A stretch of DNA of 64,000 nucleotides, taken from UHGV virus genome UHGV-1378516; one strand, written 5' to 3'. Each line of letters starts with the position of its first letter. The first letter of the stretch is position 1. Origin of the DNA: a virus. The translations under genes were made by a program, and so were the position numbers. Positions 653 to 22,700 of the stretch are shown here, in pieces. Under the pieces are notes generated by a model that saw nothing but the letters and a program-made list of their open reading frames with translations, was not told the origin of the DNA and ran no database searches.

Positions 653-877
653 TATGTTTTCTCCAAATAGTTAACCATGTTTCCCCTTAAAAAAGACGGC
701 ACAGAGACCGTCAAGGAGAAACCACAATGTACGTCAGAGACATACTGTATAAGTCTTCCTATAAAGTATAACTCTGTAAAAAAGCCCTGTCTAAAAATAC
801 TCTTCGGTAGCGAAAGGAAGAATACTTATAGCAGGGCATTATTATTATTTTAATTGAGAGAGAGTAAAATAACTTGG

Positions 878-950
878 AGAATCCGAAGGGACTCGAACCC
901 TTATAAACCTGTTTTGCAGACAGGCACATAGCCATTTCTGTCACGGATTC
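878..950 (-). tRNA. tRNA-Cys (anticodon GCA)
   Basis: Perfect 7-bp acceptor stem GAATCCG/CGGATTC, T-arm GGGTTCGAGTCCC, anticodon loop CTGCAAA. Confidence 0.7.
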
Positions 951-954
951 AAAT

Positions 955-1047
955 TGGAGGAAGATACCAGACTTGAACTGGTACACCGATTTCTCAGCTA
1001 CTGGCAGTTTAGCAAACTGCTCCCTTACCTTTTAGGGTTAATCTTCC
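955..1047 (-). tRNA. tRNA-Ser (anticodon GCT), type II, CCA encoded
   Basis: Acceptor GGAAGAT/ATCTTCC, T-arm ACCAGTTCAAGTCTGGT, anticodon stem GCAGT/ACTGC with loop TTGCTAA, long variable arm. Confidence 0.6.
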
Positions 1048-1049
1048 AT

Positions 1050-1784
1050 TTATTTCTGTAATACGTTCTTCATTTCTGGTGTTGCAATAGTGTCAATTAC
1101 ACCAGTTTTACAAGCATCATCAAACCAGTCTGGTAAGATACCTGCTAAGAACCCATTGATATTCGTTTTAAGGTACTCTGCAATAAGAGCAGCTTCTTCT
1201 TCAATCATCTGCACAACTTCATCTGCATAAGCTGTAATTTTTGAAATACCTTCATTAATCTTACTAACAGCTTGGTTAGCTAAATCAGAAATAGTATCAA
1301 GACCTTTGTCAATAGCGTCTTGTAAGTCACTTAATACATCATTAACACCGTCTAGTGCACTGTTAATCGTATCAATAGCTTTTTGACCATACTCTGTAGC
1401 AACACCCATAATACCACTAAATGGTGTACAACCAACTTGTTCACCTGCTGCACCCATAACATTAGAATAGCCTTTTGCTACCTGCATACGTGATGAGAAC
1501 TCATCAATGGACTTTTGACCGTAATCTGTCAGTGTTTTGGTAGTTGATGTAGTGCTTGTCAGACTCGTGGTAAAGCTGTTAAGCAGAACTGTTGTGAGTC
1601 CAGCAGCAACAAGCTTATCCTTTACTGTAGGGTCTGATACAGAGCTAATAGAGCTTACAAGTGATGTAGAGGCAGCTACGGTTCCGCCGAGAACTGCTGC
1701 ACCAGTAATAAGGGGGTTAGAAAACCCTTTACCAGTTTTTAAGAGATTGAAAATCTCCTTACCTTGTTCTGTCATCTCTTTCAT
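1050..1784 (-). CDS. hypothetical Ala/Thr/Ser-rich protein (start moved to internal ATG so it does not overlap tRNA-Phe)
   Basis: ORF 1050-1847 in track; ATG at 1782-1784 with AAAGGTG RBS; upstream 20 codons overlap a tRNA. Confidence 0.5.
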   Translation of the reverse strand: MKEMTEQGKEIFNLLKTGKGFSNPLITGAAVLGGTVAASTSLVSSISSVSDPTVKDKLVAAGLTTVLLNSFTTSLTSTTSTTKTLTDYGQKSIDEFSSRMQVAKGYSNVMGAAGEQVGCTPFSGIMGVATEYGQKAIDTINSALDGVNDVLSDLQDAIDKGLDTISDLANQAVSKINEGISKITAYADEVVQMIEEEAALIAEYLKTNINGFLAGILPDWFDDACKTGVIDTIATPEMKNVLQK

Positions 1785-1802
1785 TAAGCACCTTTGAAAT
1801 TG

Positions 1803-1877
1803 GTAGTCCAGTGGGATTTGAACCCTCTTCTCATGTTTTTCAGACACGCGCTTTAACCATATAAGCTACTTGGACTA
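1803..1877 (-). tRNA. tRNA-Phe (anticodon GAA)
   Basis: Acceptor TAGTCCA/TGGACTA, T-loop TTCAAAT, anticodon loop CTGAAAA. Confidence 0.65.
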
Positions 1878-1885
1878 TAAATTGG

Positions 1886-1958
1886 GGTGACCTACGGGAT
1901 TTGAACCCGTATAGACCATGTTCACAGCATGGGTCATTACCATTTATGATAAGGCCAC
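1886..1958 (-). tRNA. tRNA-His (anticodon GTG)
   Basis: Acceptor GTGGCCT/AGGTCAC, T-arm ACGGGTTCAAATCCCGT, anticodon stem CCATG/CATGG loop CTGTGAA. Confidence 0.7.
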
Positions 1959-1992
1959 ATTTAAGGACTCTCGTAAGAATCCTTAGAAGTGG

Positions 1993-2065
1993 CAGCGGCA
2001 TAAGGATTTGAACCTTAATAGGACAGCTTCAGAGACTGTTGCATTGCCAGTTATGCTATACCGCT
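1993..2065 (-). tRNA. tRNA-Gln (anticodon CTG)
   Basis: Acceptor AGCGGTA/TGCCGCT, T-arm TAAGGTTCAAATCCTTA, anticodon loop CTCTGAA. Confidence 0.6.
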
Positions 2066-2072
2066 AAATTTG

Positions 2073-2142
2073 GTACTCCATATCGGATTCGAACCGATAC
2101 ATAACACAGATTTTAAGTCTGGCCTCTCTGCCAATTGGAGTA
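2073..2142 (-). tRNA. tRNA-like gene, short (about 68-70 nt), anticodon loop CTTAAAA (UAA, nominally Leu); non-canonical D-arm
   Basis: T-arm ATCGGTTCGAATCCGAT and acceptor pairing present; D-arm does not fold canonically. Confidence 0.4.
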
Positions 2143-2154
2143 ATGGAGCATTGG

Positions 2155-2227
2155 CGGGGGATGTTGGAATTGAACCAACTTCTTCGATTTCAAAGACCGA
2201 GGTTTTAACCTTGTAAACTAATCCCCT
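2155..2227 (-). tRNA. tRNA-Gln (anticodon TTG)
   Basis: T-arm GTTGGTTCAATTCCAAC, acceptor AGGGGAT/ATCCCCC (1-72 mismatch), anticodon loop CTTTGAA. Confidence 0.55.
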
Positions 2228-2235
2228 TTAAATCT

Positions 2236-2793
2236 TTACTTTCTTAGTGGATGAATAAAGAATGCCAACATAACTCTTTCCCTTGAGAATGCTCTTTCTT
2301 CTGGGACAACGCTTTTAAGTTTCCACCCAACATAAATTCTCCAGTAAAATTGTTTACCAAAGATTTTGATTGATGGCACAAAAGCGAATAACCCCCAAGC
2401 ATTACTGTTCCACATTAGGAGATAACCAGTTTGATTATCTTCAGGGTTAGAACTTACGTTGATATTACCTTTCCACTTAGTAACGTCTTTTACATCTCTT
2501 CCTAACACATGGTAAGAGAAGTTATAAGCTTTGTTTCTCCAGAGCCATCCAACTCTCTGCATGTAGACACCAAGCTTACCAATCTTTCTAATCTTAGCCC
2601 ATCGTTTGATATGACCTGCATCACCATCAATTGGGTTGTCATAAGTCTCCATCCATCTGAACCCGAAAGGCAAGTGTCCTTTCTTCTCACTGTAGAATGG
2701 AACTACAAAAGGTGCTAAGATAACTGCTAAGATTGCTGCAAATGGCTCTAACAAAGCTAAGAAAATCCATGAAGCATACTTTAAGTATCTCAT
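2236..2793 (-). CDS. hypothetical membrane protein embedded in tRNA cluster
   Basis: ORF track 185 aa; hydrophobic N-terminus IFLALLEPFAAILAVILAPFVVPF. Confidence 0.5.
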   Translation of the reverse strand: MRYLKYASWIFLALLEPFAAILAVILAPFVVPFYSEKKGHLPFGFRWMETYDNPIDGDAGHIKRWAKIRKIGKLGVYMQRVGWLWRNKAYNFSYHVLGRDVKDVTKWKGNINVSSNPEDNQTGYLLMWNSNAWGLFAFVPSIKIFGKQFYWRIYVGWKLKSVVPEERAFSRERVMLAFFIHPLRK

Positions 2794-3032
2794 TGTCTAA
2801 TCCTCGTAAGGAGGTAAATGTTATTATTAGTTTCTAAACCTTCTGGTAAAACTGTCTCAAAAATAACACTCTTCAGATGTCTACCACCAAAACAATCACG
2901 TATAAATCTTTCTACTCTAGCGGGGTCACATAAGTATCCCACTTTTAAGAAAATGTGGTGTTCAACACCAATGACCCTGACAAACTCAATACTCTCACAG
3001 TTTTCATGTTCAACTACTGTTAATGTTTGCAT
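2790..3032 (-). CDS. hypothetical protein (80 aa)
   Basis: ORF track; 4-nt overlap with downstream gene suggests translational coupling. Confidence 0.4.
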   Translation of the reverse strand: MQTLTVVEHENCESIEFVRVIGVEHHIFLKVGYLCDPARVERFIRDCFGGRHLKSVIFETVLPEGLETNNNIYLLTRIRQ

Positions 3033-3052
3033 AGTATCACCTTTTTATCTGG

Positions 3053-3125
3053 CGCAGGATAAGGGATTCGAACCCCTATTAACAGCTTCGTAGACTGTTG
3101 CTCTTTCCATTTGAACTAATCCTGC
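3053..3125 (-). tRNA. tRNA-Arg (anticodon ACG)
   Basis: Perfect acceptor GCAGGAT/ATCCTGC, T-loop TTCGAAT, anticodon loop CTACGAA. Confidence 0.7.
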
Positions 3126-3133
3126 AAAATTGG

Positions 3134-3208
3134 TGTTCCAAGACGGATTCGAACCGTCACTAATACAAGGTTTGAGCTTGCATCCTCTGCCAATTGGGAT
3201 ACTGGAAC
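3134..3208 (-). tRNA. tRNA with anticodon CAA (nominally Leu) but short type-I architecture
   Basis: Acceptor GTTCCAG/TTGGAAC, T-arm GACGGTTCGAATCCGTC, anticodon loop CTCAAAC, discriminator A; no long variable arm. Confidence 0.5.
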
Positions 3209-3212
3209 ATGG

Positions 3213-3284
3213 TACTCACTAAAGGACTTGAACCTTTTTCTTCATCTTGTAAGGGTGATGTTTTACCATATAAACTAAGCGAGT
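3213..3284 (-). tRNA. tRNA-Val (anticodon TAC)
   Basis: Acceptor ACTCGCT/AGTGAGT (one GU), T-arm AAAGGTTCAAGTCCTTT, anticodon loop CTTACAA. Confidence 0.55.
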
Positions 3285-3288
3285 ATGA

Positions 3289-3376
3289 AAGAGGTCTGGA
3301 GTTGTGCCGCTAACTCAACTCCGTGGAATTTGTTACGGTCTTCAGTTGACTCAAAGCGGTCTTTCACTTGACCTCT
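3289..3376 (-). ncRNA. tRNA-sized structured RNA candidate without canonical T-loop
   Basis: 7-bp terminal pairing AGAGGTC/GACCTCT spaced 88 nt apart, internal 7-bp hairpin GGAGTTG...CAACTCC; no TTCRANT T-loop. Confidence 0.25.
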
Positions 3377-3383
3377 GAATTGG

Positions 3384-3456
3384 TGCTCCCACAAGGACTC
3401 GAACCCTGATAAGTTGCTTACAAGGCAACCGTAATAACCAATTATACGATAGGAGC
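3384..3456 (-). tRNA. tRNA-Thr (anticodon TGT)
   Basis: Acceptor GCTCCTA/TGGGAGC, T-arm CAGGGTTCGAGTCCTTG, anticodon stem GTTGC/GCAAC loop CTTGTAA. Confidence 0.65.
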
Positions 3457-3466
3457 ATTAATTTGG

Positions 3467-3538
3467 AGCATCCAGAGGGAATCGAACCCTCAACCTCAGT
3501 TTGGAAGACTGTAATTTTCCCGTTTAAACTATGGATGC
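3467..3538 (-). tRNA. tRNA-Gly (anticodon TCC)
   Basis: Perfect acceptor GCATCCA/TGGATGC, T-arm GAGGGTTCGATTCCCTC, anticodon loop CTTCCAA. Confidence 0.65.
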
Positions 3539-3547
3539 ACTAATTGG

Positions 3548-3620
3548 TGGAGTCACCGAGAATTGAACTCGGTTCCCAAGTTTGCAAAACTCGAATTTTA
3601 ACCATATAAACTATGACCCC
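3548..3620 (-). tRNA. tRNA-Ala (anticodon TGC)
   Basis: Acceptor GGGGTCA/TGACTCC with G3-U70, T-arm CCGAGTTCAATTCTCGG, anticodon loop TTTGCAA. Confidence 0.7.
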
Positions 3621-3629
3621 AATGTCTGG

Positions 3630-3702
3630 TACAGGTGGAGGGAATTGAACCCATCGTCTTACTGATTAAGAGTCAGCCGCATAACCATTTTGCTACACCT
3701 GC
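3630..3702 (-). tRNA. tRNA-Lys (anticodon CTT)
   Basis: Acceptor GCAGGTG/CACCTGT, T-loop TTCAATT, anticodon stem GCTGA/TCAGT loop CTCTTAA. Confidence 0.55.
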
Positions 3703-3712
3703 ATTAATTTGG

Positions 3713-3788
3713 TAGGAGACAAGGGATTCGAACCCTCAAGCATCTCGTTCTAAGCGAGATAGGTCTACCAAGTTGCCGTCAATCTCCC
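3713..3788 (-). tRNA. tRNA with anticodon TAG (nominally Leu), type-I length
   Basis: Acceptor GGGAGAT/GTCTCCT (two GU), T-arm GAGGGTTCGAATCCCTT, perfectly palindromic anticodon arm ATCTCG-CTTAGAA-CGAGAT. Confidence 0.5.
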
Positions 3789-4044
3789 ATTAAATCTTTT
3801 TAGAGAACTTCTAAGAACCTGAGCAACAAGGTTCCACAACAAGCGACTAATAACCTTAGAAGCCCTCTAAAAAGACCTAAATAGGTCTTTGCATAGTCTT
3901 GTTTAATCCGGTGACTAGAACCTTTGGAGAGCTTGATATTATCTCTTCTCCGTGACACCTACTAGGTGCTTTGACAGTGTACGACAATACACGAGGGATA
4001 AACCGACAATGCGAACAAGCATGGACGGAGTAAATCTTATTAGG

Positions 4045-4132
4045 CGGTAAGTAAAGGAGTCGAACCCTCACCGTATCTCTACAGTGGCAACAGTTTTCAA
4101 GACTGTTTGGCTGCCATTAGCCGCTACCTACC
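4045..4132 (-). tRNA. tRNA-Ser (anticodon TGA), type II
   Basis: Acceptor GGTAGGT/ACTTACC, T-loop TTCGACT, anticodon stem ACAGT/ACTGT loop CTTGAAA, long variable arm. Confidence 0.6.
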
Positions 4133-4148
4133 CCTAATAAGACTTTGG

Positions 4149-4228
4149 CATGGGACGGAGGAGTTGAACCCCTTTGAAACGGTTTTGGAGGCCGTTGCTC
4201 ATGCCTTAGAGTCTTAACATCGTCCCAT
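4149..4228 (-). tRNA. tRNA-like gene (80 nt), anticodon undetermined (possible 9-nt loop containing CCA)
   Basis: Perfect acceptor ATGGGAC/GTCCCAT and T-arm AGGGGTTCAACTCCTCC; interior does not fold into canonical D/anticodon arms. Confidence 0.4.
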
Positions 4229-4373
4229 ATTATAATTCGAAGCTTACCCTGTTATCTCAACACTGTCAAGCTTCTTCTCAGATTATTTACATGTTCTGGA
4301 AAACATGAGATACAGACCACCTCCCTACAGGAAGACCCGCTAAGGCCGTCTAAGTAATCTGCTAACTATTTGG

Positions 4374-4447
4374 TACACCCTACAGGATTCGAACCTGTAA
4401 CTAACGATTTAGAAGACCGTTGCTCTATCCAATTGAACTAAGGGTGC
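4374..4447 (-). tRNA. tRNA-Arg (anticodon TCT)
   Basis: Acceptor GCACCCT/AGGGTGT, D-arm GTTCAATTGGATAGAGC, T-loop TTCGAAT, anticodon loop CTTCTAA. Confidence 0.65.
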
Positions 4448-4696
4448 ATTATCTTTAAAGACTCTCTTAGAAAGCCCTTAAAGATGCCCACCTTATTAAT
4501 CATACCGTGGGCGAGTACGCCAAATTCTTTGATGAGGGATTGGAAGACCTCACTGGTGTTTAGCCTATCAAGCTACTGCCAGAAAAACATTGTCGTTTGC
4601 ATTTATTTTAAATTTGCAAAATAGACGCTACGCAACGAAAACTAAGGTTACTATAAAGTAGTCACATCTCAATGTCAACAACTTTATTGAAATTGG

Positions 4697-4769
4697 TACT
4701 GGTAGGTGGAATCGAACCACCGATGTTCCCTTATCAGGGGAGTGTTATAACCTTCTTAACTATACCAGC
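4697..4769 (-). tRNA. tRNA-Ile (anticodon GAT)
   Basis: Acceptor GCTGGTA/TACCAGT, T-arm GGTGGTTCGATTCCACC, anticodon loop CTGATAA. Confidence 0.65.
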
Positions 4770-4773
4770 TTGG

Positions 4774-4847
4774 AGGTTCAGATGGGAATCGAACCCACAT
4801 TCATAGGGCTTATGAGACCCTTGCATTACCTTATCTGCGACTGAACC
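4774..4847 (-). tRNA. tRNA-Met (anticodon CAT; initiator-like GGG/CCC in anticodon stem)
   Basis: Perfect acceptor GGTTCAG/CTGAACC, T-loop TTCGATT, anticodon stem AGGGT/GCCCT loop CTCATAA. Confidence 0.6.
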
Positions 4848-4854
4848 ATATTGG

Positions 4855-4927
4855 TAGAAGTGGAGGGATTCGAACCCATCGCCTGTCAGATTAAAAGTCT
4901 GCCGCATCACCATTCTGCTACACTTCC
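4855..4927 (-). tRNA. tRNA-Lys (anticodon TTT)
   Basis: Acceptor GGAAGTG/CACTTCT, T-loop TTCGAAT, anticodon loop CTTTTAA. Confidence 0.6.
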
Positions 4928-5126
4928 ATTAAATTATCTTTGTAGATAAGCTACCCAGACTTGCTTAAGGTCTGTAGCGATGTGCCTTTTGGGTTTAAAT
5001 CTAGAATTTACCCATTCACCCTTTGTGGTCGCATACTCACAGGTAAGCTTAATAACTTATCTACAAAGATAATTACCAGACCGTTGTTTATCATCTTAAG
5101 TGCTACCATTACACCAACTCGACATC

Positions 5127-5172
5127 TGCCGAGTGAAGGAATCGAACCTTCGCCTTTTCTTTACCGGAGAAA
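5127..5172 (-). pseudogene. tRNA remnant: 3' half (T-arm + acceptor 3' strand) plus an anticodon-arm-like hairpin (loop CCGGTAA), no matching 5' acceptor strand
   Basis: T-arm GAAGGTTCGATTCCTTC present; no complementary 5' acceptor strand within 100 nt. Confidence 0.3.
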
Positions 5173-5358
5173 TAGATTGTTTAAGTTTTGCTGTAAACGG
5201 TCTTCTGTAAATTTGTTGAGCCAGACCAAGTTTTAAATTTTCAAAATTAAATTGGCTTGAAATTTCATACGTTCTTGCTGTATTTGGTCTTCTGCTCCTT
5301 TAAAGAATACTCGTAAGAACTCTTTAAGGGAGGGGCTAAATAGCCCTCTCAAAATTGG

Positions 5359-5433
5359 CGGTTACGAAGGGATTTGAACCCTCATCATCTCCCGTGACAG
5401 GGGAGTATTTTAACCAGATTAAACTACATAACC
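5359..5433 (-). tRNA. tRNA-Asp (anticodon GTC)
   Basis: Acceptor GGTTATG/CGTAACC, T-loop TTCAAAT, anticodon stem CTCCC/GGGAG loop CTGTCAC. Confidence 0.65.
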
Positions 5434-5441
5434 TTTATTGG

Positions 5442-5526
5442 TGTGCCGTGTAGGAGTCGAACCTACCGAGTCTCAATGACAAGGGATTTACAGTCCCCAC
5501 CGCTACCATCTACGGGATAACGACAC
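5442..5526 (-). tRNA. tRNA-Tyr (anticodon GTA), type II
   Basis: Acceptor GTGTCGT/ACGGCAC, T-arm GTAGGTTCGACTCCTAC, anticodon loop CTGTAAA, long variable arm. Confidence 0.6.
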
Positions 5527-5598
5527 ATTTAATTTCTATTCAGGCTAAGGACTTGCACCTTACAAATCGGTGAGCAATCGCTTCTCTCCTAAATTTGG

Positions 5599-5672
5599 CG
5601 GTTAGTCAGGGATTCGAACCCTGTGCCATTCGCTTAACAGGCGACCGCACATACCTTATGTGCTTCCTAACC
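5599..5672 (-). tRNA. tRNA-Asn (anticodon GTT)
   Basis: T-arm CAGGGTTCGAATCCCTG, acceptor GGTTAGG/ACTAACC, anticodon loop CTGTTAA. Confidence 0.6.
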
Positions 5673-5759
5673 ATGTTTAGTATTACCAGACCGTATCTTT
5701 CAATTTTTTCCGCTAAAAATTTAATAAATATTGCTGTAAACGGTCTTCTGTAAATTTGG

Positions 5760-5833
5760 AGGCGGGTGCAGGAGTCGAACCTGCCGATACCATGCTAATG
5801 AGACATGTGAGACGCCCTTTCTCTATACCCGCA
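5760..5833 (-). tRNA. tRNA-Met (anticodon CAT), 1-72 mismatch
   Basis: T-arm GCAGGTTCGACTCCTGC, acceptor TGCGGGT/ACCCGCC, anticodon stem CATGT/GCATG loop CTCATTA. Confidence 0.55.
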
Positions 5834-5927
5834 ATTCTTAATGACCAGACCAAATCTCTTCTTTGTCCGATTTACCTTCAGATGAATAAGATTAAGTTTG
5901 CTGTAATTGGTCTTCTGTCAAAACTGG

Positions 5928-6002
5928 CGTTCCAGAAGGGATTTGAACCCTCAAATATCCACTTTGAAAGAGTGGTGACTTTACCATTTTGTCTACTGGA
6001 AC
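5928..6002 (-). tRNA. tRNA-Glu (anticodon TTC)
   Basis: Perfect acceptor GTTCCAG/CTGGAAC, T-loop TTCAAAT, anticodon stem CCACT/AGTGG loop CTTTCAA. Confidence 0.65.
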
Positions 6003-6012
6003 ATTAATTTGG

Positions 6013-6086
6013 TCTCTGTTGGAGGACTTGAACCTCCGGCCTTACCGCCCCAAACGGAACGCTCTACCAAGCTGAGCTAAACAGAG
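6013..6086 (-). tRNA. tRNA-Pro (anticodon TGG)
   Basis: Perfect acceptor CTCTGTT/AACAGAG, canonical D-arm GCTCAGCTTGGTAGAGC, T-arm GGAGGTTCAAGTCCTCC, anticodon loop TTTGGGG. Confidence 0.65.
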
Positions 6087-7748: not shown

Positions 7749-8120
7749 TTATTTTTTAAGCGTTGCTACAGCAGAGAATGTTGGTTTGTTATCTGTCTGA
7801 GACTGACCAACATTATCAGGGGTCTTCTTAGTGTCTGCTGCAATTGCTTTCATCTCACCCGCTGAGTGGGTCATGATAGTTTTACCAGCTTCCATCATCG
7901 ACTTCAGGTTTACATCGTCAGTCGTCAAACCGAACTCTGCAAGCTTAGCAGCGTCCCTTGTAACAATCGCTTCAAACAACTTTGCAGCAAACTCAGCAGA
8001 ATTATCAATGGTCAGTTGAGCTTTTACAAGTGAACTTTTGTTACGAGAGCCTTTTGGTCTTCCAGATGGGTTTCCAGATTGGCCTTTTTTAAACTGGCCT
8101 TTGTTTGTTCTGTTTTTCAT
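7749..8120 (-). CDS. hypothetical protein with N-terminal basic Gly-rich motif (GNPSGRPKG)
   Basis: 123-aa ORF; motif KGQSGNPSGRPKGSRNK common in phage proteins of unknown function. Confidence 0.5.
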   Translation of the reverse strand: MKNRTNKGQFKKGQSGNPSGRPKGSRNKSSLVKAQLTIDNSAEFAAKLFEAIVTRDAAKLAEFGLTTDDVNLKSMMEAGKTIMTHSAGEMKAIAADTKKTPDNVGQSQTDNKPTFSAVATLKK

Positions 8121-15756: not shown

Positions 15757-16210
15757 AGAAGTAGTTCAAAAAGCAATGCTTAACAATTCAACTAAAGATA
15801 AAATGTACAAAGAGATTTGTGATAAGCTGAGTTGTTCAAGACATGCTGCTAAGGCTCTTGTGCATTGCTTTATCTTGGAATGCTCAGAAGCTTATATGAA
15901 ACATATAGCTTTTGAAAGTTCTAACTTACTAGGTGATGTAGAAGTTGGTGAGAAGCTAAAAGAACCTGAAGTGAAAACAGTTCCTAAAGTTGGTAATGTA
16001 TACCGACTTAAAGACTTCAAGACTGGAGAGGTTGTTGCAAAAGGTGTAGTAGAGTCTGTTTATCATGACGGTAAATACCTATTTAAGATATTTGAGTGTG
16101 ATAGCATCTATTTACATTTGTTTGGTCTTACATTCTTAGTAACAGAAGAAGACCTCATTAAGAACAACGGCAACAAGTTTGCAGTTCCAGCTTACCAAGT
16201 TTTACGATAA
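15746..16210 (+). CDS. hypothetical protein (154 aa)
   Basis: ORF track. Confidence 0.5.
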   Translation: MKIKEVVQKAMLNNSTKDKMYKEICDKLSCSRHAAKALVHCFILECSEAYMKHIAFESSNLLGDVEVGEKLKEPEVKTVPKVGNVYRLKDFKTGEVVAKGVVESVYHDGKYLFKIFECDSIYLHLFGLTFLVTEEDLIKNNGNKFAVPAYQVLR

Positions 16211-16223
16211 TGGTGTGATAGCT

Positions 16224-16772
16224 ATGGAAAAAGATAACTTAAAAGATGTTGAAGGTAACTATCTAGTCCTTGATTGGAGTGATGCTCAAGAAGCACTCTC
16301 TGAAGAAAGTCTTGACAGATTAAAACAGATTGTTTTTGCAGTACGGGGTTACAGAGAAGTTAAAAATGGTAAAGACCCACTTGAAGGAGTCTTTGTAGAG
16401 AAATCTTATCCGTTCTATGAAGACACTTTGCAGAAAGTTAAGATGTACTTTAGACAGAAGAACCGTAAAGTGGTCACTATGGTATCTCTTGGTGGACAGA
16501 ATATGTCTGTGATGGAAGATATTAATCCTAAGAGACCGAGTAAAGGTATCTGTATAAAAATCACAGGACATGAAGAGTATATCTCAGTGGATGACTTTAG
16601 TGCATTCTGTAATGGCTCTTGCGTCTTTAATGGTTTTCACTATGATATCCGAGTGTACCCAATTAAGGGTGATGATATCATGATGCAGGTATTCGATAAT
16701 AACAATGGATTTACTCATTTTTATCAGACAACCAAGTCATCATTGAAAACAGTTCTGGAAACACTGATTTAA
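16224..16772 (+). CDS. hypothetical protein (start moved to internal ATG after upstream stop)
   Basis: Track ORF 16179-16772 overlaps previous gene; ATG at 16224 is first after stop. Confidence 0.45.
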   Translation: MEKDNLKDVEGNYLVLDWSDAQEALSEESLDRLKQIVFAVRGYREVKNGKDPLEGVFVEKSYPFYEDTLQKVKMYFRQKNRKVVTMVSLGGQNMSVMEDINPKRPSKGICIKITGHEEYISVDDFSAFCNGSCVFNGFHYDIRVYPIKGDDIMMQVFDNNNGFTHFYQTTKSSLKTVLETLI

Positions 16773-16783
16773 AATATCTTAAG

Positions 16784-16810
16784 AGCCCCCTTAATTGGGG
16801 GCTTTTTAAT
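16784..16810 (+). terminator. rho-independent terminator
   Basis: Hairpin AGCCCCCTTAATTGGGGGCT followed by TTTTTAATTTTT. Confidence 0.7.
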
Positions 16811-16829
16811 TTTTATAAAATTTTATCGG

Positions 16830-17950
16830 TTGTTCCAACCTCTGGGTCACCATCATATGTGAATAAAATATCTATCCTTCTTAACAACCTTCTTAATCTT
16901 ACTCTCTATATAGTTATATAGTACTATATAGTATCTTAGTAACTATCTAGTGGTCTTAATAGCCCTCTGTATAACCCTTCTAAATAGCCCTCTAAACACT
17001 CTTCTAACAAGCCTTCTTAACAACCTATACAATCACCTTAACCATCTCTCTATACCCTCTTAGAAGCCCCTATACACCTCTTAATCTCTAGGTTAGCTAT
17101 GATACCCTCTATAGGTGTTCACTAGGTATTACTAAGCCTCTATATAGACTGTTTTAACAAACTTAACAGGAATATCTTCACAGACCTTATCTCACAAGGT
17201 CTAACACGGTACTAACAAGGTATCTTATAAGCCTGTTTCTACCTGTATTTTTAAAAGACTGTCTAGGTAATTATTCAGATTTTTAAAATTTTTATAAAAT
17301 AGGACTATCAAGTCATTTTTTAGGGTCTTTGAAGGAACTCAAAAATATCTGTAGGAGATGTATATCTGCTTGGTAGCCCTTAACAGCTCCCTTACAAGTA
17401 CTTTGCAAAATTTTAAAATATCCTTAACAATCTCTTAACAGTTCTCACATCTTCTTAACAACTCTTCAAAGGTCTTAACAGTTTCTTAACAGAACTAACA
17501 AGGGCTTAACAGTTTTCTAACAAGTGCTGAATAGGTTTTACAGAATCTTAACAGATGACTAACAAGAGCTAACAAGTTAATTTTAAAGAGTTATTTTGTT
17601 AGGGATTGGTAACAATACCAATTAGATAACTAACAAGTTCCTAATAAGTGTTTAATCTTTTTAACAAGCTATTAACATGGTCACTATCTCTTTTCTTATC
17701 GTTCCCTTTCTCTCTTAGTGATTCTCTAAACATACCTTTTAAAAACTCTCTATAGCTCCTTGTAAGCTCTTTTAAATCTCTTCCTAGTATCTACCCATCA
17801 ACTGTATGGATAGCTCTTTATAGGGCTTTACAGGAGCTTTTAAGGCTATGTCAAAGACTCTTACAAGGCTTTTACGTGGTCTTAACAGAGATTTAACAAG
17901 GGGCTAACAAGTCTCTAACAAGAATAACTATGTAGGGATTGTTAAGAAAT
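16830..17950. repeat. dense array of short YTAACAR motifs (CTTAACAA / CTTAACAG / CTAACAAG), more than 25 copies
   Basis: Read directly; densest at 17425-17580 with about 12 copies at 8-12 bp spacing; plus strand C+T-rich and G-poor. Confidence 0.6.
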
Positions 17951-18399
17951 TGTTAAGAAAATGTTAAGGGGGCTAGCATTTACGTAACTTTATAGCCTTT
18001 TTTACGTTACTTTGAAGTAACTTTATAGCCCCTATAACATGCTTTTTAGTGACTATCAAGGGGATTGTTTAGTTATTCACAAGATACTAGCCAGCCTATA
18101 AACTTTCACCCTTATAAGATTCTTTTAAGGCTCTGGGAAGCTCTATAAAGGGCTTTTTAGAGTGGGTTAATATGATTGCTTAAGTTAGGTTGATAAGGCT
18201 GTTATAGAGCTTTATAGAGCGTTTTAGTGGTTGCCCTTCCCTTTCGGATTATGGGCTTGTATTTAAGTTGATTTGATAAAAGGTTATAGAGTAGACTATA
18301 GAGTTATTGCTTTTAAGGTATGGGATAGATTCTATCGAATTAGTGGGATAGATTCTGGGAAGGAAAGGAAAGGGTTTTAATAGAGGCTATTACATAGAC

Positions 18400-18423
18400 G
18401 TAAAAAGCCCCATTTAAGGGGCT
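18400..18423 (-). terminator. rho-independent terminator ending the long minus-strand block
   Basis: Hairpin GCCCCTTAAATGGGGC followed by T-run on minus strand. Confidence 0.6.
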
Positions 18424-18461
18424 GTAAAGGTATCTGGGGCTATTTAGCCCCGTTGCGTCGA

Positions 18462-18710
18462 TTAGTTATGACCGTCTTTATCGTAATAAAGAGAAATAAT
18501 TTTATCGCCCCAATAGTGCCAATGTGTACCATCTTTCACCGCTTCTTGAATAGCTGCAATCCAAAAATCCGATTCAGGGTTATAATCCTTGACAATCTGG
18601 CTAACAAGGCTTTTCACCATGTCAAAAGCACTGTCAGTGCCTATAATGTCAAATTTAACGTCCAGAGAGTAGAAGCCAAATTCGTTAACAGTTGCGCGGA
18701 TAGTAGCCAT
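18462..18710 (-). CDS. hypothetical small protein (start trimmed to ATG after conserved RBS cassette)
   Basis: Track ORF read through the intergenic module; ATG at 18708-18710 follows AGGAG-ATTCTAAA spacer. Confidence 0.5.
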   Translation of the reverse strand: MATIRATVNEFGFYSLDVKFDIIGTDSAFDMVKSLVSQIVKDYNPESDFWIAAIQEAVKDGTHWHYWGDKIISLYYDKDGHN

Positions 18711-18780
18711 TTTAGAATCTCCTAGTTTAAGGGTTTTATTTAGTGGGGTGGGGGTTATCTCCTCCCCGTTGATTAGTAAT
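18711..18780 (-). repeat. intergenic cassette, variant A (GC-clamped hairpin + conserved RBS)
   Basis: TAGAATCTCCTAGTTTAAGG...TTTAGTGGGG...CTCCCCGTTGATTAGTAATTTA on plus strand. Confidence 0.6.
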
Positions 18781-19044
18781 TTACTGCATATTGGCGTATG
18801 TTGCAAGCCTTTTTTCGTTGTATTTTGTAAGAATCTCACAAGATAAAACATCGAACTTTGTAACCGCGTTGCCTTTGTCGAGGTCAAAAAAGCCAAACGC
18901 TTTACCATCTTTGAATCCGACAACTTCGTAAGACTCTTTGATGATTTCATCATTGAACAAATCGCTTTCGATACGGTGGAATAATGCTACATCTTCTTTG
19001 TCGGTTGCAATTTGTAAAAGTGTGGTTAATTCTACGTTTTCCAT
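18781..19044 (-). CDS. hypothetical small acidic protein (87 aa)
   Basis: ORF track; preceded by cassette copy. Confidence 0.5.
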   Translation of the reverse strand: MENVELTTLLQIATDKEDVALFHRIESDLFNDEIIKESYEVVGFKDGKAFGFFDLDKGNAVTKFDVLSCEILTKYNEKRLATYANMQ

Positions 19045-19110
19045 CTTGATAACTCCAGTTTAGGACTTTATTTAGTGGGGAAGGTCATTCCCTCCCCGTT
19101 GATTGACAAT
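19045..19110 (-). repeat. intergenic cassette, variant A
   Basis: GGACTTTATTTAGTGGGGAAGGTCATTCCCTCCCCGTTGATTGACAATTTAC. Confidence 0.6.
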
Positions 19111-19641
19111 TTACAGACTTTTGATTGTTTCGTCAATATCTTTTTCAATATCTTTTAAAGTTTTTTCTAAGTTCTTGATATTGAAAGATAAACCTTCACC
19201 GAGAGTCTTAGAGTAACCGCTAGGACGTAAATCATAAAGGCTAATTTGTTCTACATTAGAGAGGCTGACCATTTCACCGCTTACATCATAAGCTATTGAT
19301 ACAGTATTTTCAGGGGCTTTATAGAACTTGTTTAGTGACTTGATAGAACGTTCATAAGCCATTTTATAACCGTTTAAAAGGTTTTTAACATGGTTGTAAA
19401 CGTTTTTACACTCATCCAAGTAAATCCCTAAGAATAGCGGTAATAATTCTGCTACAGCTTGCATAAAGTGAGAGACTACAACGGTTGCAGCATTACGACG
19501 ATGAACGTAATAAGCTCCGTTTTCTGATTTAGTGATGGTTGCAAAGTGTACCCCATTGCAGCGAAATTCGTAGGTATCTTTGACAGGCTTTGACATTACA
19601 GCACTTGAGCGGATGTAATTGATGGCTTTGAACTTGTTCAT
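19111..19641 (-). CDS. hypothetical protein (176 aa; start trimmed)
   Basis: ATG at 19639-19641 directly after cassette RBS. Confidence 0.5.
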   Translation of the reverse strand: MNKFKAINYIRSSAVMSKPVKDTYEFRCNGVHFATITKSENGAYYVHRRNAATVVVSHFMQAVAELLPLFLGIYLDECKNVYNHVKNLLNGYKMAYERSIKSLNKFYKAPENTVSIAYDVSGEMVSLSNVEQISLYDLRPSGYSKTLGEGLSFNIKNLEKTLKDIEKDIDETIKSL

Positions 19642-19725
19642 TTTAGAGTCTCCTAGTTTAAGGATTTTGTTTAGTGGGAAGGTCATTCCCTCCCCGTTGA
19701 TTAGTAATTTACTTGCTTTGATAGC
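19642..19725 (-). repeat. intergenic cassette, variant A
   Basis: TTTAGAGTCTCCTAGTTTAAGGATTTTGTTTAGTGGGAAGGTCATTCCCTCCCCGTTGATTAGTAATTTAC. Confidence 0.6.
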
Positions 19726-20204: not shown

Positions 20205-20285
20205 TTTTAGAATCTCCTAGTTTAAGGACTTTATTTAGTGGGGAAGGTCATTCCCTCCCCGTTGATGTGTAATTTAATCTATCTA
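20205..20285 (-). repeat. intergenic cassette, variant A
   Basis: Identical core to 21071-21160 copy including trailing TGTGTAATTTAATCTATCTAAAAAACAGTGTCAACA. Confidence 0.6.
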
Positions 20286-22248: not shown

Positions 22249-22629
22249 TTATTTAATTTTGAAGATTGTTACATAACCATCACTCCCGATGATTTGTGAT
22301 ACTCCAGCCTTTTCTACTTGATAGCCCATATTTTCAAGATGATAAATAGCATCATCATAACCATATGCGCCACCCTGATAACGTCTCTTATCACATCTTA
22401 TCAGGTTTTTTCCACGTCCAGCAAGTGCATGGAGAATGGTTTTTTCACTTGAAAGAGTGCCATCTAACATGGTTGCCGTGTAATGGTTGATTTTATTCCC
22501 GTTGATATCATACTTGAAATTGAACGAGTGAACAACAATCACATTACCTTTGAAATTTTCATCAAGTGACTTCTCCAGTACGCTACGAAAGTTGTCTTTG
22601 TTGATGAATTTAGGCGCACGATATTTCAT
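22249..22629 (-). CDS. hypothetical protein (126 aa), first gene of the cassette array
   Basis: ORF track. Confidence 0.5.
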   Translation of the reverse strand: MKYRAPKFINKDNFRSVLEKSLDENFKGNVIVVHSFNFKYDINGNKINHYTATMLDGTLSSEKTILHALAGRGKNLIRCDKRRYQGGAYGYDDAIYHLENMGYQVEKAGVSQIIGSDGYVTIFKIK

Positions 22630-22700
22630 TTTCTGAATCTCCTAGTTTAAGGACTTTATTTAGTGTGGAAGGTCATTCCCTCCCCGTTGATGCAAATACT
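22630..22700 (-). repeat. intergenic cassette, variant A (most upstream copy)
   Basis: TTCTGAATCTCCTAGTTTAAGGACTTTATTTAGTGTGGAAGGTCATTCCCTCCCCGTTGATG. Confidence 0.6.

Follow-up and report, generated by a model that had tools for sequence, protein, structure and literature searches.

Phage genome UHGV-1378516, of which we analyzed 64,000 nucleotides (hereafter the window), contains a 1.6-kb gap between two gene blocks (positions 16812-18400) that is filled with copies of a short motif, YTAACAR. The window comes from a Felixounavirus, a Felix O1-like myophage (Ounavirinae), and comparison with the sequences of related phages makes it almost certain that in the gap the two ends of a linear chromosome meet within a circularized assembly, in which the direct terminal repeat (DTR) is reduced to a single copy. 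Inside the DTR the motif copies form an array that is phased with the DNA helix, and in our analysis the prospects are slightly better than even that a packaging and terminus-processing protein occupies this array, which is likely to be where the packaging machinery assembles and cuts. Elements of this kind are known, and their existence in this phage group is already published; the internal organization (the phased array, the conservation of its cores, the bracketing 9-mers, the head-to-head copies and the mirrored arms) is new, in that it is not described in the searchable literature.

Location of the direct terminal repeat

The DTR was placed by homology (coordinates of all features are collected in Table 1). 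In phage Pr103Blw, a 'short direct terminal repeat' of 581 bp is annotated at each end, the two copies being identical at 581 of 581 positions. This repeat maps to 17372-17973 of the window (90% identity), and Pr103Blw, once its ends are joined, is colinear with the window throughout the gap. PhageTerm also gives 581 bp for the DTR of Pr103Blw (PMC8303462), and the program has been applied by others to D4. Exact terminal duplications that map to the same interval occur in D4 (581/581), NBEco005 (651/651) and HP1, our example from Mooglevirus (570 bp, annotated), and these three repeats have identical first and last bases (GGTAGCCCTTAACA... and ...AATGTTAAGGGGGC). The end repeats of a third genus, Kolesnikvirus (439 bp in Hafnia phage SPARTY and 444 bp in Erwinia phage MM7), map there as well and have the same layout, the DTR of SPARTY lying inside a gene-free gap of approximately 1.45 kb. 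Several GenBank records start or stop inside the gap, and those of Ro111lw, SPJ41 and SeKF_63 begin exactly at the DTR start. For UAB_Phi87, Bal31 digestion and run-off sequencing gave a DTR of 608 bp (PMC4837284); the sequence in Fig. S1 of that paper is the DTR region of the window in reverse complement, with ends 2 nucleotides (left) and 9 nucleotides (right) off. The terL phylogeny agrees with packaging type (PMC4837284), and terL of the phage studied here, judging from the annotation of a relative, lies mostly outside the window, upstream of position 430 on the - strand.

The boundaries of the repeat are themselves conserved. Directly outside the left boundary, ATATCTGCTT is identical in Felixounavirus, Mooglevirus and Kolesnikvirus SPARTY; the sequences across the two boundaries, ATATCTGCTT/GGTAGCCC and AAGGGGGC/TAG (the slash marks the boundary), are identical between Felixounavirus and Mooglevirus, and SPARTY keeps ATATCTGCTT/ on one side and GGC/TA on the other.

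The gap can thus be read as the right-end arm, a single collapsed copy of the DTR and the left-end arm, joined by assembly. The first-pass annotation of the window had described it as a transcriptionally silent zone of convergence, which misreads the topology: virion DNA is linear, both neighboring gene blocks are transcribed towards the ends of the virion chromosome, and they seem convergent because the circularized assembly joins those ends. Two of its suggestions, a site for packaging and an array bound by a phage protein, pointed in the right direction, since the gap contains the DTR, and the genome ends, whose mapping it had proposed, are located here by homology to related records.

A motif array phased with the DNA helix

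The full window holds 97 matches to YTAACAR (69 ± 9 in shuffled sequences), 27 of them in the gap, where they span 16881-17956, and 70 in the other 62 kb. The density is therefore 17 per kb in the gap and 1.1 per kb elsewhere, an enrichment of about 15-fold, so that the earlier claim of more than 25 copies holds and the motif, in a count over the window, is concentrated in the gap, not spread at similar density. All but three of the 27 copies (24/27) are on the + strand, inside the DTR and the left arm. Unbiased word counts single out the same family: CTAACAAG is the most enriched word (nine copies versus 0.06 expected; p 4.5e-17), and CTTAACAG (eight copies; p 1e-11) and TAACAAG (11 copies; p 1e-16) are among the other top words. 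A second family, CTCTATA/TATAGAG, also stands out in these counts, and 17 of the 27 copies of CTMTATA/TATAKAG in the window are in the gap.

The spacing of the copies follows the helical repeat. Eleven copies were found in 17424-17575, close to the dozen at near-helical spacing that had been noticed in 17425-17580, and their start-to-start distances are 11, 20, 20, 11, 9, 11, 11, 31, 11 and 10 bp. For the 20 + strand TAACA cores of the DTR (17372-17973), the periodogram peaks at 10.45 bp with R = 0.81, which none of 1000 random placements reached. This phasing puts the copies on the same face of the helix along more than 500 bp. The TAACA cores of HP1 are phased in the same way (10.40 bp, R 0.81, likewise unmatched by random placements); SPARTY retains the local spacing (20, 9, 11, 11), with weaker phasing overall.

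Motif copies begin 3-5 bp inside both DTR boundaries and fill the repeat, and terminase may be hypothesized to bind here. The 9-mer CCCTTAACA occurs only three times in the 64 kb, counting both strands, and two of these copies stand at the edges of the DTR, inverted relative to each other (+ strand at 17377, - strand at 17962), so that each virion 5' end would begin G(N5-7)TTAACA. Near the right boundary a set of direct copies faces a set of inverted copies, the last of which is the CCCTTAACA 9-mer, 3 nucleotides inside the boundary. Folded as single-stranded DNA, the two sets base-pair with each other in an interrupted hairpin (-10.9 kcal/mol, z -2.1), and the same head-to-head layout is present at the right boundary in HP1 and SPARTY. 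Scanning IMG/VR for CTTAACA-N3-5-CTTAACA yielded, among the matches listed, mostly single chance matches and no comparable array.

Conservation of the array

We aligned 11 genomes (eight Felixounavirus and three Mooglevirus), so that ten relatives are compared with the window; the conservation values given here and below refer to this alignment. Of the 15 cores in the main array, 11 are kept at the aligned position in all ten relatives, and most motif copies are retained at the same column in nine or ten of the ten. Mean conservation is 0.94 for the motif cores versus 0.82 for the other DTR columns (Mann-Whitney p 1.5e-9). In the comparison with HP1, the gap aligns continuously at approximately 75% identity, whereas alignment of the left flanking genes is patchy; the protein next to the gap on that side has about 45% identity, and the flanking proteins are about 45-53% identical across genera. 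With Kolesnikvirus, 6 kb were compared, and only positions 17401-17483, within the array, can still be aligned. The motif is conserved among phages of Escherichia, Salmonella, Citrobacter, Erwinia and Hafnia.

Comparison with known systems

The gap resembles the concatemer junction of T7 in two respects: both have a short exact DTR (160 bp in T7) in a non-coding junction, and both have a 7-bp motif iterated on one strand in and beside the DTR (in T7, 13 of 13 copies of CCTAAAG are on the + strand). These heptamer arrays are called SRL and SRR, and the T3 junction is of the same kind. The differences are equally clear. No sequence similarity exists between the two; spacing is mostly 13 bp in T7, in contrast to the 10.45-bp phasing of CTTAACAR here; the T7 arrays are mostly outside the DTR, whereas most copies here are inside; promoters read inward from the left end of T7, whereas both neighboring gene blocks here read outward; and a pause site for the phage RNA polymerase, ATCTGTT, abuts the repeat of T7. 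The array is thus an analog of the T7 heptamer arrays and not a homolog. It would be the second independent example, after T7, of iterated short motifs that organize a short-DTR junction, with the difference that one-face helical phasing here suggests DNA wrapping. Searching the literature by the T7 motif sequence gave nothing usable. As a separate observation, the T7 pause signal begins at the first base after the T7 DTR (T7 positions 161-167), and in the window two copies of ATATCTG lie close to the left DTR boundary on its outer side (17345-17371); we set aside the likeness of ATATCTGCTT to the pause signal, which may be coincidence given the 19 copies of ATATCTG in the window. No T7-like RNA polymerase is annotated in 50 kb of the relative D4.

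In Twort-like phages, the terminal repeats are edged by inverted repeats of 12 bp (PMC7596081), much as CCCTTAACA marks both repeat edges here. Their repeats (Kayvirus) are approximately 8 kb long and coding, however, in contrast to 0.6 kb and non-coding here, and the bracket in the window is one copy of a motif that is also iterated internally. The two phage groups also share the absence of GATC (see below).

At the packaging sites of other phages (the R sites of lambda cosB, the pac boxes of SPP1 and the pac hexamers of P1), short repeated elements lie beside the cleavage positions, and their proposed action is to bend or wrap DNA around an oligomeric small terminase. Such sites have three to seven elements over 100-200 bp, and lambda also needs IHF; the array here has approximately 20 phased copies over 600 bp and no IHF site, and its small terminase is only a candidate (see below). 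Head-to-tail repeats one helical turn apart are also found in plasmid iterons and in R1 parC, whose 11-bp direct repeats are wrapped by ParR, and there as here the one-turn spacing implies cooperative binding on one face of the DNA. The array differs from them in coinciding with the chromosome ends of a virulent phage. No Rep, ParA, ParB or ParR partner gene was found among the flanking proteins or in the 50 kb of D4 annotation, which leaves the partition-like site suggested by the first-pass annotation with no support.

A proposed model for packaging and terminus processing

We read the region as the concatemer junction of a short-DTR phage: replicating or assembled DNA carries the DTR once, between two non-coding subterminal arms, and the linear virion chromosome carries it at both ends. 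Approximately 20 head-to-tail sites phased on one face of the helix are what would be expected if an oligomeric protein bound them cooperatively and bent or wrapped the DNA, and the location of the array at the chromosome ends makes the packaging terminase the simplest choice of partner. In the mechanism that we propose, an oligomeric protein, most likely the recognition subunit of the packaging terminase (for which the DUF5681 protein described below is a candidate), would bind the one-face TAACA cores cooperatively and bend or wrap the DTR. The resulting complex would place a nuclease at both fixed boundaries, where a copy of CCCTTAACA points inward within 3-5 bp. Nicks would be made on opposite strands, approximately 600 bp apart, and strand-displacement synthesis would then duplicate the repeat, as in the Watson-type maturation proposed for T7, and so provide each packaged chromosome with a full copy of the DTR. 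The head-to-head copies at the right boundary might bind the protein convergently or form a hairpin intermediate like that in the T7 proposal, and the mirrored arms might mean that both chromosome ends are treated alike. For T7, both the hairpin intermediate and the Watson-type duplication of the repeat were reportedly proposed by Chung et al. in 1990.

A candidate small terminase

Published analyses of this phage group found no small terminase. A 123-amino-acid protein of the DUF5681 family is nominated here: its gene position in other phages raises the possibility, still a doubtful one, that it is the small terminase and binds the array. Distant homologs are encoded in unrelated metagenomic phages by DUF5681 genes that directly precede terL and overlap it; in a marine relative, the gene is part of a terL-portal operon; and in phage STGO-35-1, whose genome was reoriented to begin with terL, it is listed close to the genome end. 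The protein has an invariant basic amino-terminal arm, FKKGQSGNPxGRPKGSRN, of which the GRPKG part is tentatively AT-hook-like. It has no match to PDB sequences. Two other proteins near terL, of 66 and 244 amino acids, match families of unknown function only, and the former has too few diverse homologs for a useful model.

Several observations concern the surroundings of these genes. The DUF5681 gene is the first larger gene of a - strand block that extends across the tRNA array as far as terL, and the 26-tRNA array (875-6086) separates the two putative terminase genes. In a marine metagenome relative, four tandem copies of CATTTAATAAA (3580-3625) lie in a divergent intergenic region upstream of a DUF5681-like gene.

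Combining these elements, the DTR could be a nucleoprotein organizer, in which the DUF5681 small terminase polymerizes on the approximately 20 phased sites and wraps about 600 bp, the brackets set the cuts, and the head-to-head array is the hairpin primer that duplicates the repeat. We offer this combined scheme with low confidence; if true, it would be the first sequence-level model of how a short-DTR myovirus defines and copies its ends.

A number of points weigh against the packaging interpretation or against parts of it. The DTR of this phage was placed by homology, and boundary calls differ by 2-9 nucleotides among methods and records, which makes the details of the nick sites uncertain. 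Conservation is high over the whole gap (0.82-0.96), suggesting functions beyond one motif. The binder of the array is a candidate, and it is gene position that links the DUF5681 protein to the array: its AlphaFold model is weak (predicted local distance difference test score 67) and has no Foldseek match at E <= 0.001 in PDB, and no TAACA arrays were found near the DUF5681 genes of other phages. To our knowledge, the function of the T7 heptamer arrays, with which we compare the array, is also unproven.

Alternative explanations

The array may instead bind another protein, namely an end-protection or ejection-control complex, a winged-helix regulator of the OmpR/PhoB type (from phage or host) or RNA polymerase; we regard this as unlikely. 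The ends of the chromosome enter the cell first and last, and the terminal repeat of T5 holds a repeat-rich injection-stop region that offers a parallel for ejection control, but nothing links the array to ejection. Proteins of the OmpR/PhoB type bind 10-11-bp direct repeats, which suits head-to-tail copies at approximately 10.5-bp spacing; retention of the motif across phages of five host genera, however, is better matched by a phage-encoded partner. The case for RNA polymerase is that TTAACA matches the -35 hexamer TTGACA at five of six positions and that several weak promoter-like matches use the motif as a -35 element, yet a sigma-70 scan shows no enrichment of such sites (10 versus 7.8 ± 2.5 in shuffles). 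Conservation of the whole gap, beyond the motif alone, would also be in keeping with another binder. The gap has no IHF sites, nor does it have matches to Chi or T4 late-promoter patterns.

An iteron-type replication origin, alone or besides packaging, at which an initiator would bind the phased repeats and melt AT-rich tracts, appears improbable. Of the origin proposed in the first-pass annotation, the generic part stands: the direct repeats are phased with the helical repeat, and AT-rich tracts are present at 17268-17301 and 17403-17420. What would be more specific does not. A perfect DnaA-box match lies on either side of the DTR, the two being inverted relative to each other (0.15 expected), but they are not conserved beyond Felixounavirus, the right-hand box (at 18073) being kept in 3 of the 11 genomes, and no initiator-like gene is adjacent, as the flanking proteins match only families of unknown function. 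Local GC skew turns from negative to positive across the region, as it might at an origin, but the switch is mirrored around the chromosome ends and not around an AT-rich center. Origins near chromosome ends have a precedent in T7, in which promoters named for secondary origins (phiOL and phiOR) lie near the ends; the tie of the motif to both DTR boundaries, however, is not required of an origin.

That transcription starting at the center of the gap produces non-coding RNAs or messages for small proteins is, in our view, very unlikely. Each arm does have the skew polarity of an outward-transcribed unit, small open reading frames (ORFs) are annotated here in some GenBank records, and the folding of some 120-nucleotide segments is stronger than that of shuffled sequences (for example, z -4.2 at 17181-17300). 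These fold signals, however, coincide with inverted motif arrays and an AT-rich palindrome, and as DNA folds they are modest (z -2.1 to -2.7). No Rfam family comes near threshold in 16000-19500 (E up to 1), where only the flanking terminator matched leader-peptide models. The longest ORF within the gap has 37 amino acids, in agreement with the earlier statement that none reaches 60, and none of the five ORFs of at least 30 amino acids stays open throughout the ten related genomes, stops or frameshifts breaking all of them. A literature search for Felixounavirus transcriptomes gave no usable data.

Low-complexity drift in unconstrained DNA, for which the AT-rich (33% GC), non-coding character of the gap might speak, has a negligible chance of explaining a motif excess of about 15-fold in strand-biased, helically phased copies that hold their positions across genera whose flanking proteins have diverged so far.

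Subterminal arms and other features

The two arms of the gap are mirror images in composition. On the + strand, the left arm has 11.6% G and 21.2% C, and the right arm has 22.5% G and 12.6% C; the corresponding GC skews are -0.29 and +0.28 in the window, -0.22 and +0.16 in HP1, and -0.18 and +0.21 in SPARTY. The strand asymmetry noticed earlier is therefore real, but it is not uniform over the gap: the + strand is G-poor only to approximately 17800, and the right arm is reversed. Conservation of the left arm is 0.86-0.96. The arm motif changes with genus, being CTCTATA/TATAGAG in Felixounavirus and Mooglevirus and TTAGAAG in Kolesnikvirus; the right arm of SPARTY, as read from its sequence, has many TTAGAAG-type copies instead. 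Both AT-rich tracts are conserved, and an ability to unwind is a possibility for them. The AT-rich near-palindrome TTTTATAAAATTTT occurs at 16811-16824, right after the left terminator, and again at 17286-17299, approximately 75 bp before the DTR. Terminators had been reported on both sides of the gap, and both are present (Table 1).

Table 1. Features of the gap and the candidate small-terminase gene (positions in the window)
Feature	Position	Strand	Remarks
Direct terminal repeat, 602 bp	17372..17973		Single copy in circularized assembly; starts GGTAGCCCTTAACAG, ends AATGTTAAGGGGGC
Main array of CTTAACAR / CTAACAAG copies	17424..17677	+	15 TAACA cores on one helical face
CCCTTAACA 9-mer	17377..17385	+	5 nucleotides inside left DTR boundary, pointing into repeat
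Four consecutive direct motif copies	17882..17921	+	11-bp spacing
Three consecutive inverted motif copies (TGTTAAG)	17939..17970	-	11-bp spacing, facing the four direct copies; period 11, 95% matches
GTATATCTGCTT, abutting left DTR boundary	17360..17371	+	Invariant in 11-genome alignment
Left non-coding arm (virion right-end subterminal arm)	16812..17371		CTCTATA-type motifs; six YTAACAR copies and a seventh TAACA core
Right non-coding arm (virion left-end subterminal arm)	17974..18400		TATAGAG / CTTTATAG motifs; two TGGGATAGATTCT copies
AT-rich near-palindromic tract TTTTTAAAATTTTTATAAAATA	17268..17301		About 70 bp outside DTR; conserved; equivalent AT-rich tract in HP1 and SPARTY
DnaA-box-like TGTGAATAA (reverse complement TTATTCACA)	16858..16866	-	Kept in 8/8 Felixounavirus; lost in three Mooglevirus and in Kolesnikvirus
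Rho-independent terminator closing left gene block	16781..16810	+	Stem-loop 16781-16806, then T run; terminator annotated at same place in wV8
Rho-independent terminator closing right gene block	18406..18423	-	
DUF5681 protein, 123 amino acids, candidate small terminase	7749..8120	-	Pfam PF18932, E 7.5e-14

Relatives and implications

By megablast, 256-257 phage records match the region at 60-95% identity, almost all of them from Felixounavirus or related Ounavirinae, with Escherichia, Salmonella, Shigella and Citrobacter as hosts; the tRNA array typical of the group is also present in the window (26 genes, 875-6086, - strand). The homologous 1.6 kb is without gene annotation in wV8, Felix O1 and fjerdesal (the last has two short repeat_region features), and neither gap nor motif is mentioned in the genome papers of Felix O1 and wV8.

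Felix O1-type phages are widely used for typing, detection and biocontrol of Salmonella and E. coli, and many GenBank records open the genome arbitrarily and leave these 1.6 kb unannotated. Recognizing the gap as the chromosome ends fixes natural genome coordinates and explains the apparent convergent 'silent' zone. The conserved cis-element (boundaries and phased array) may be usable in packaging-competent vectors or reporter phages, and a small-terminase candidate is now nominated for a group in which none had been identified.

Three further observations concern the records and the rest of the window. The 147-kb record of Staphylococcus phage SA1 (GU169904.1) contains, at 137082-137627, a Felix O1-type gene whose protein is 89% identical to that of the left flanking gene, and it matches the gap itself too, an indication that the assembly of this record is mixed or chimeric. 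To the right of the gap, an element of approximately 70 bp is repeated among small - strand genes (18705-18774, 19642-19713, 20205-20276 and 22625-22691); it is probably the counterpart of the 57-bp intergenic direct repeats described in the Felix O1 genome paper and of the DR features annotated in wV8, and the copies could be promoter or terminator cassettes of end-proximal genes. Finally, GATC has no match in the window (1-64000), versus 189 ± 14 expected from dinucleotide-preserving shuffles. This is a genome-wide avoidance of the Dam / MboI / Sau3AI-type site, which the Felix O1 genome paper does not mention and which has likewise been reported for Twort-like phages (PMC7596081).

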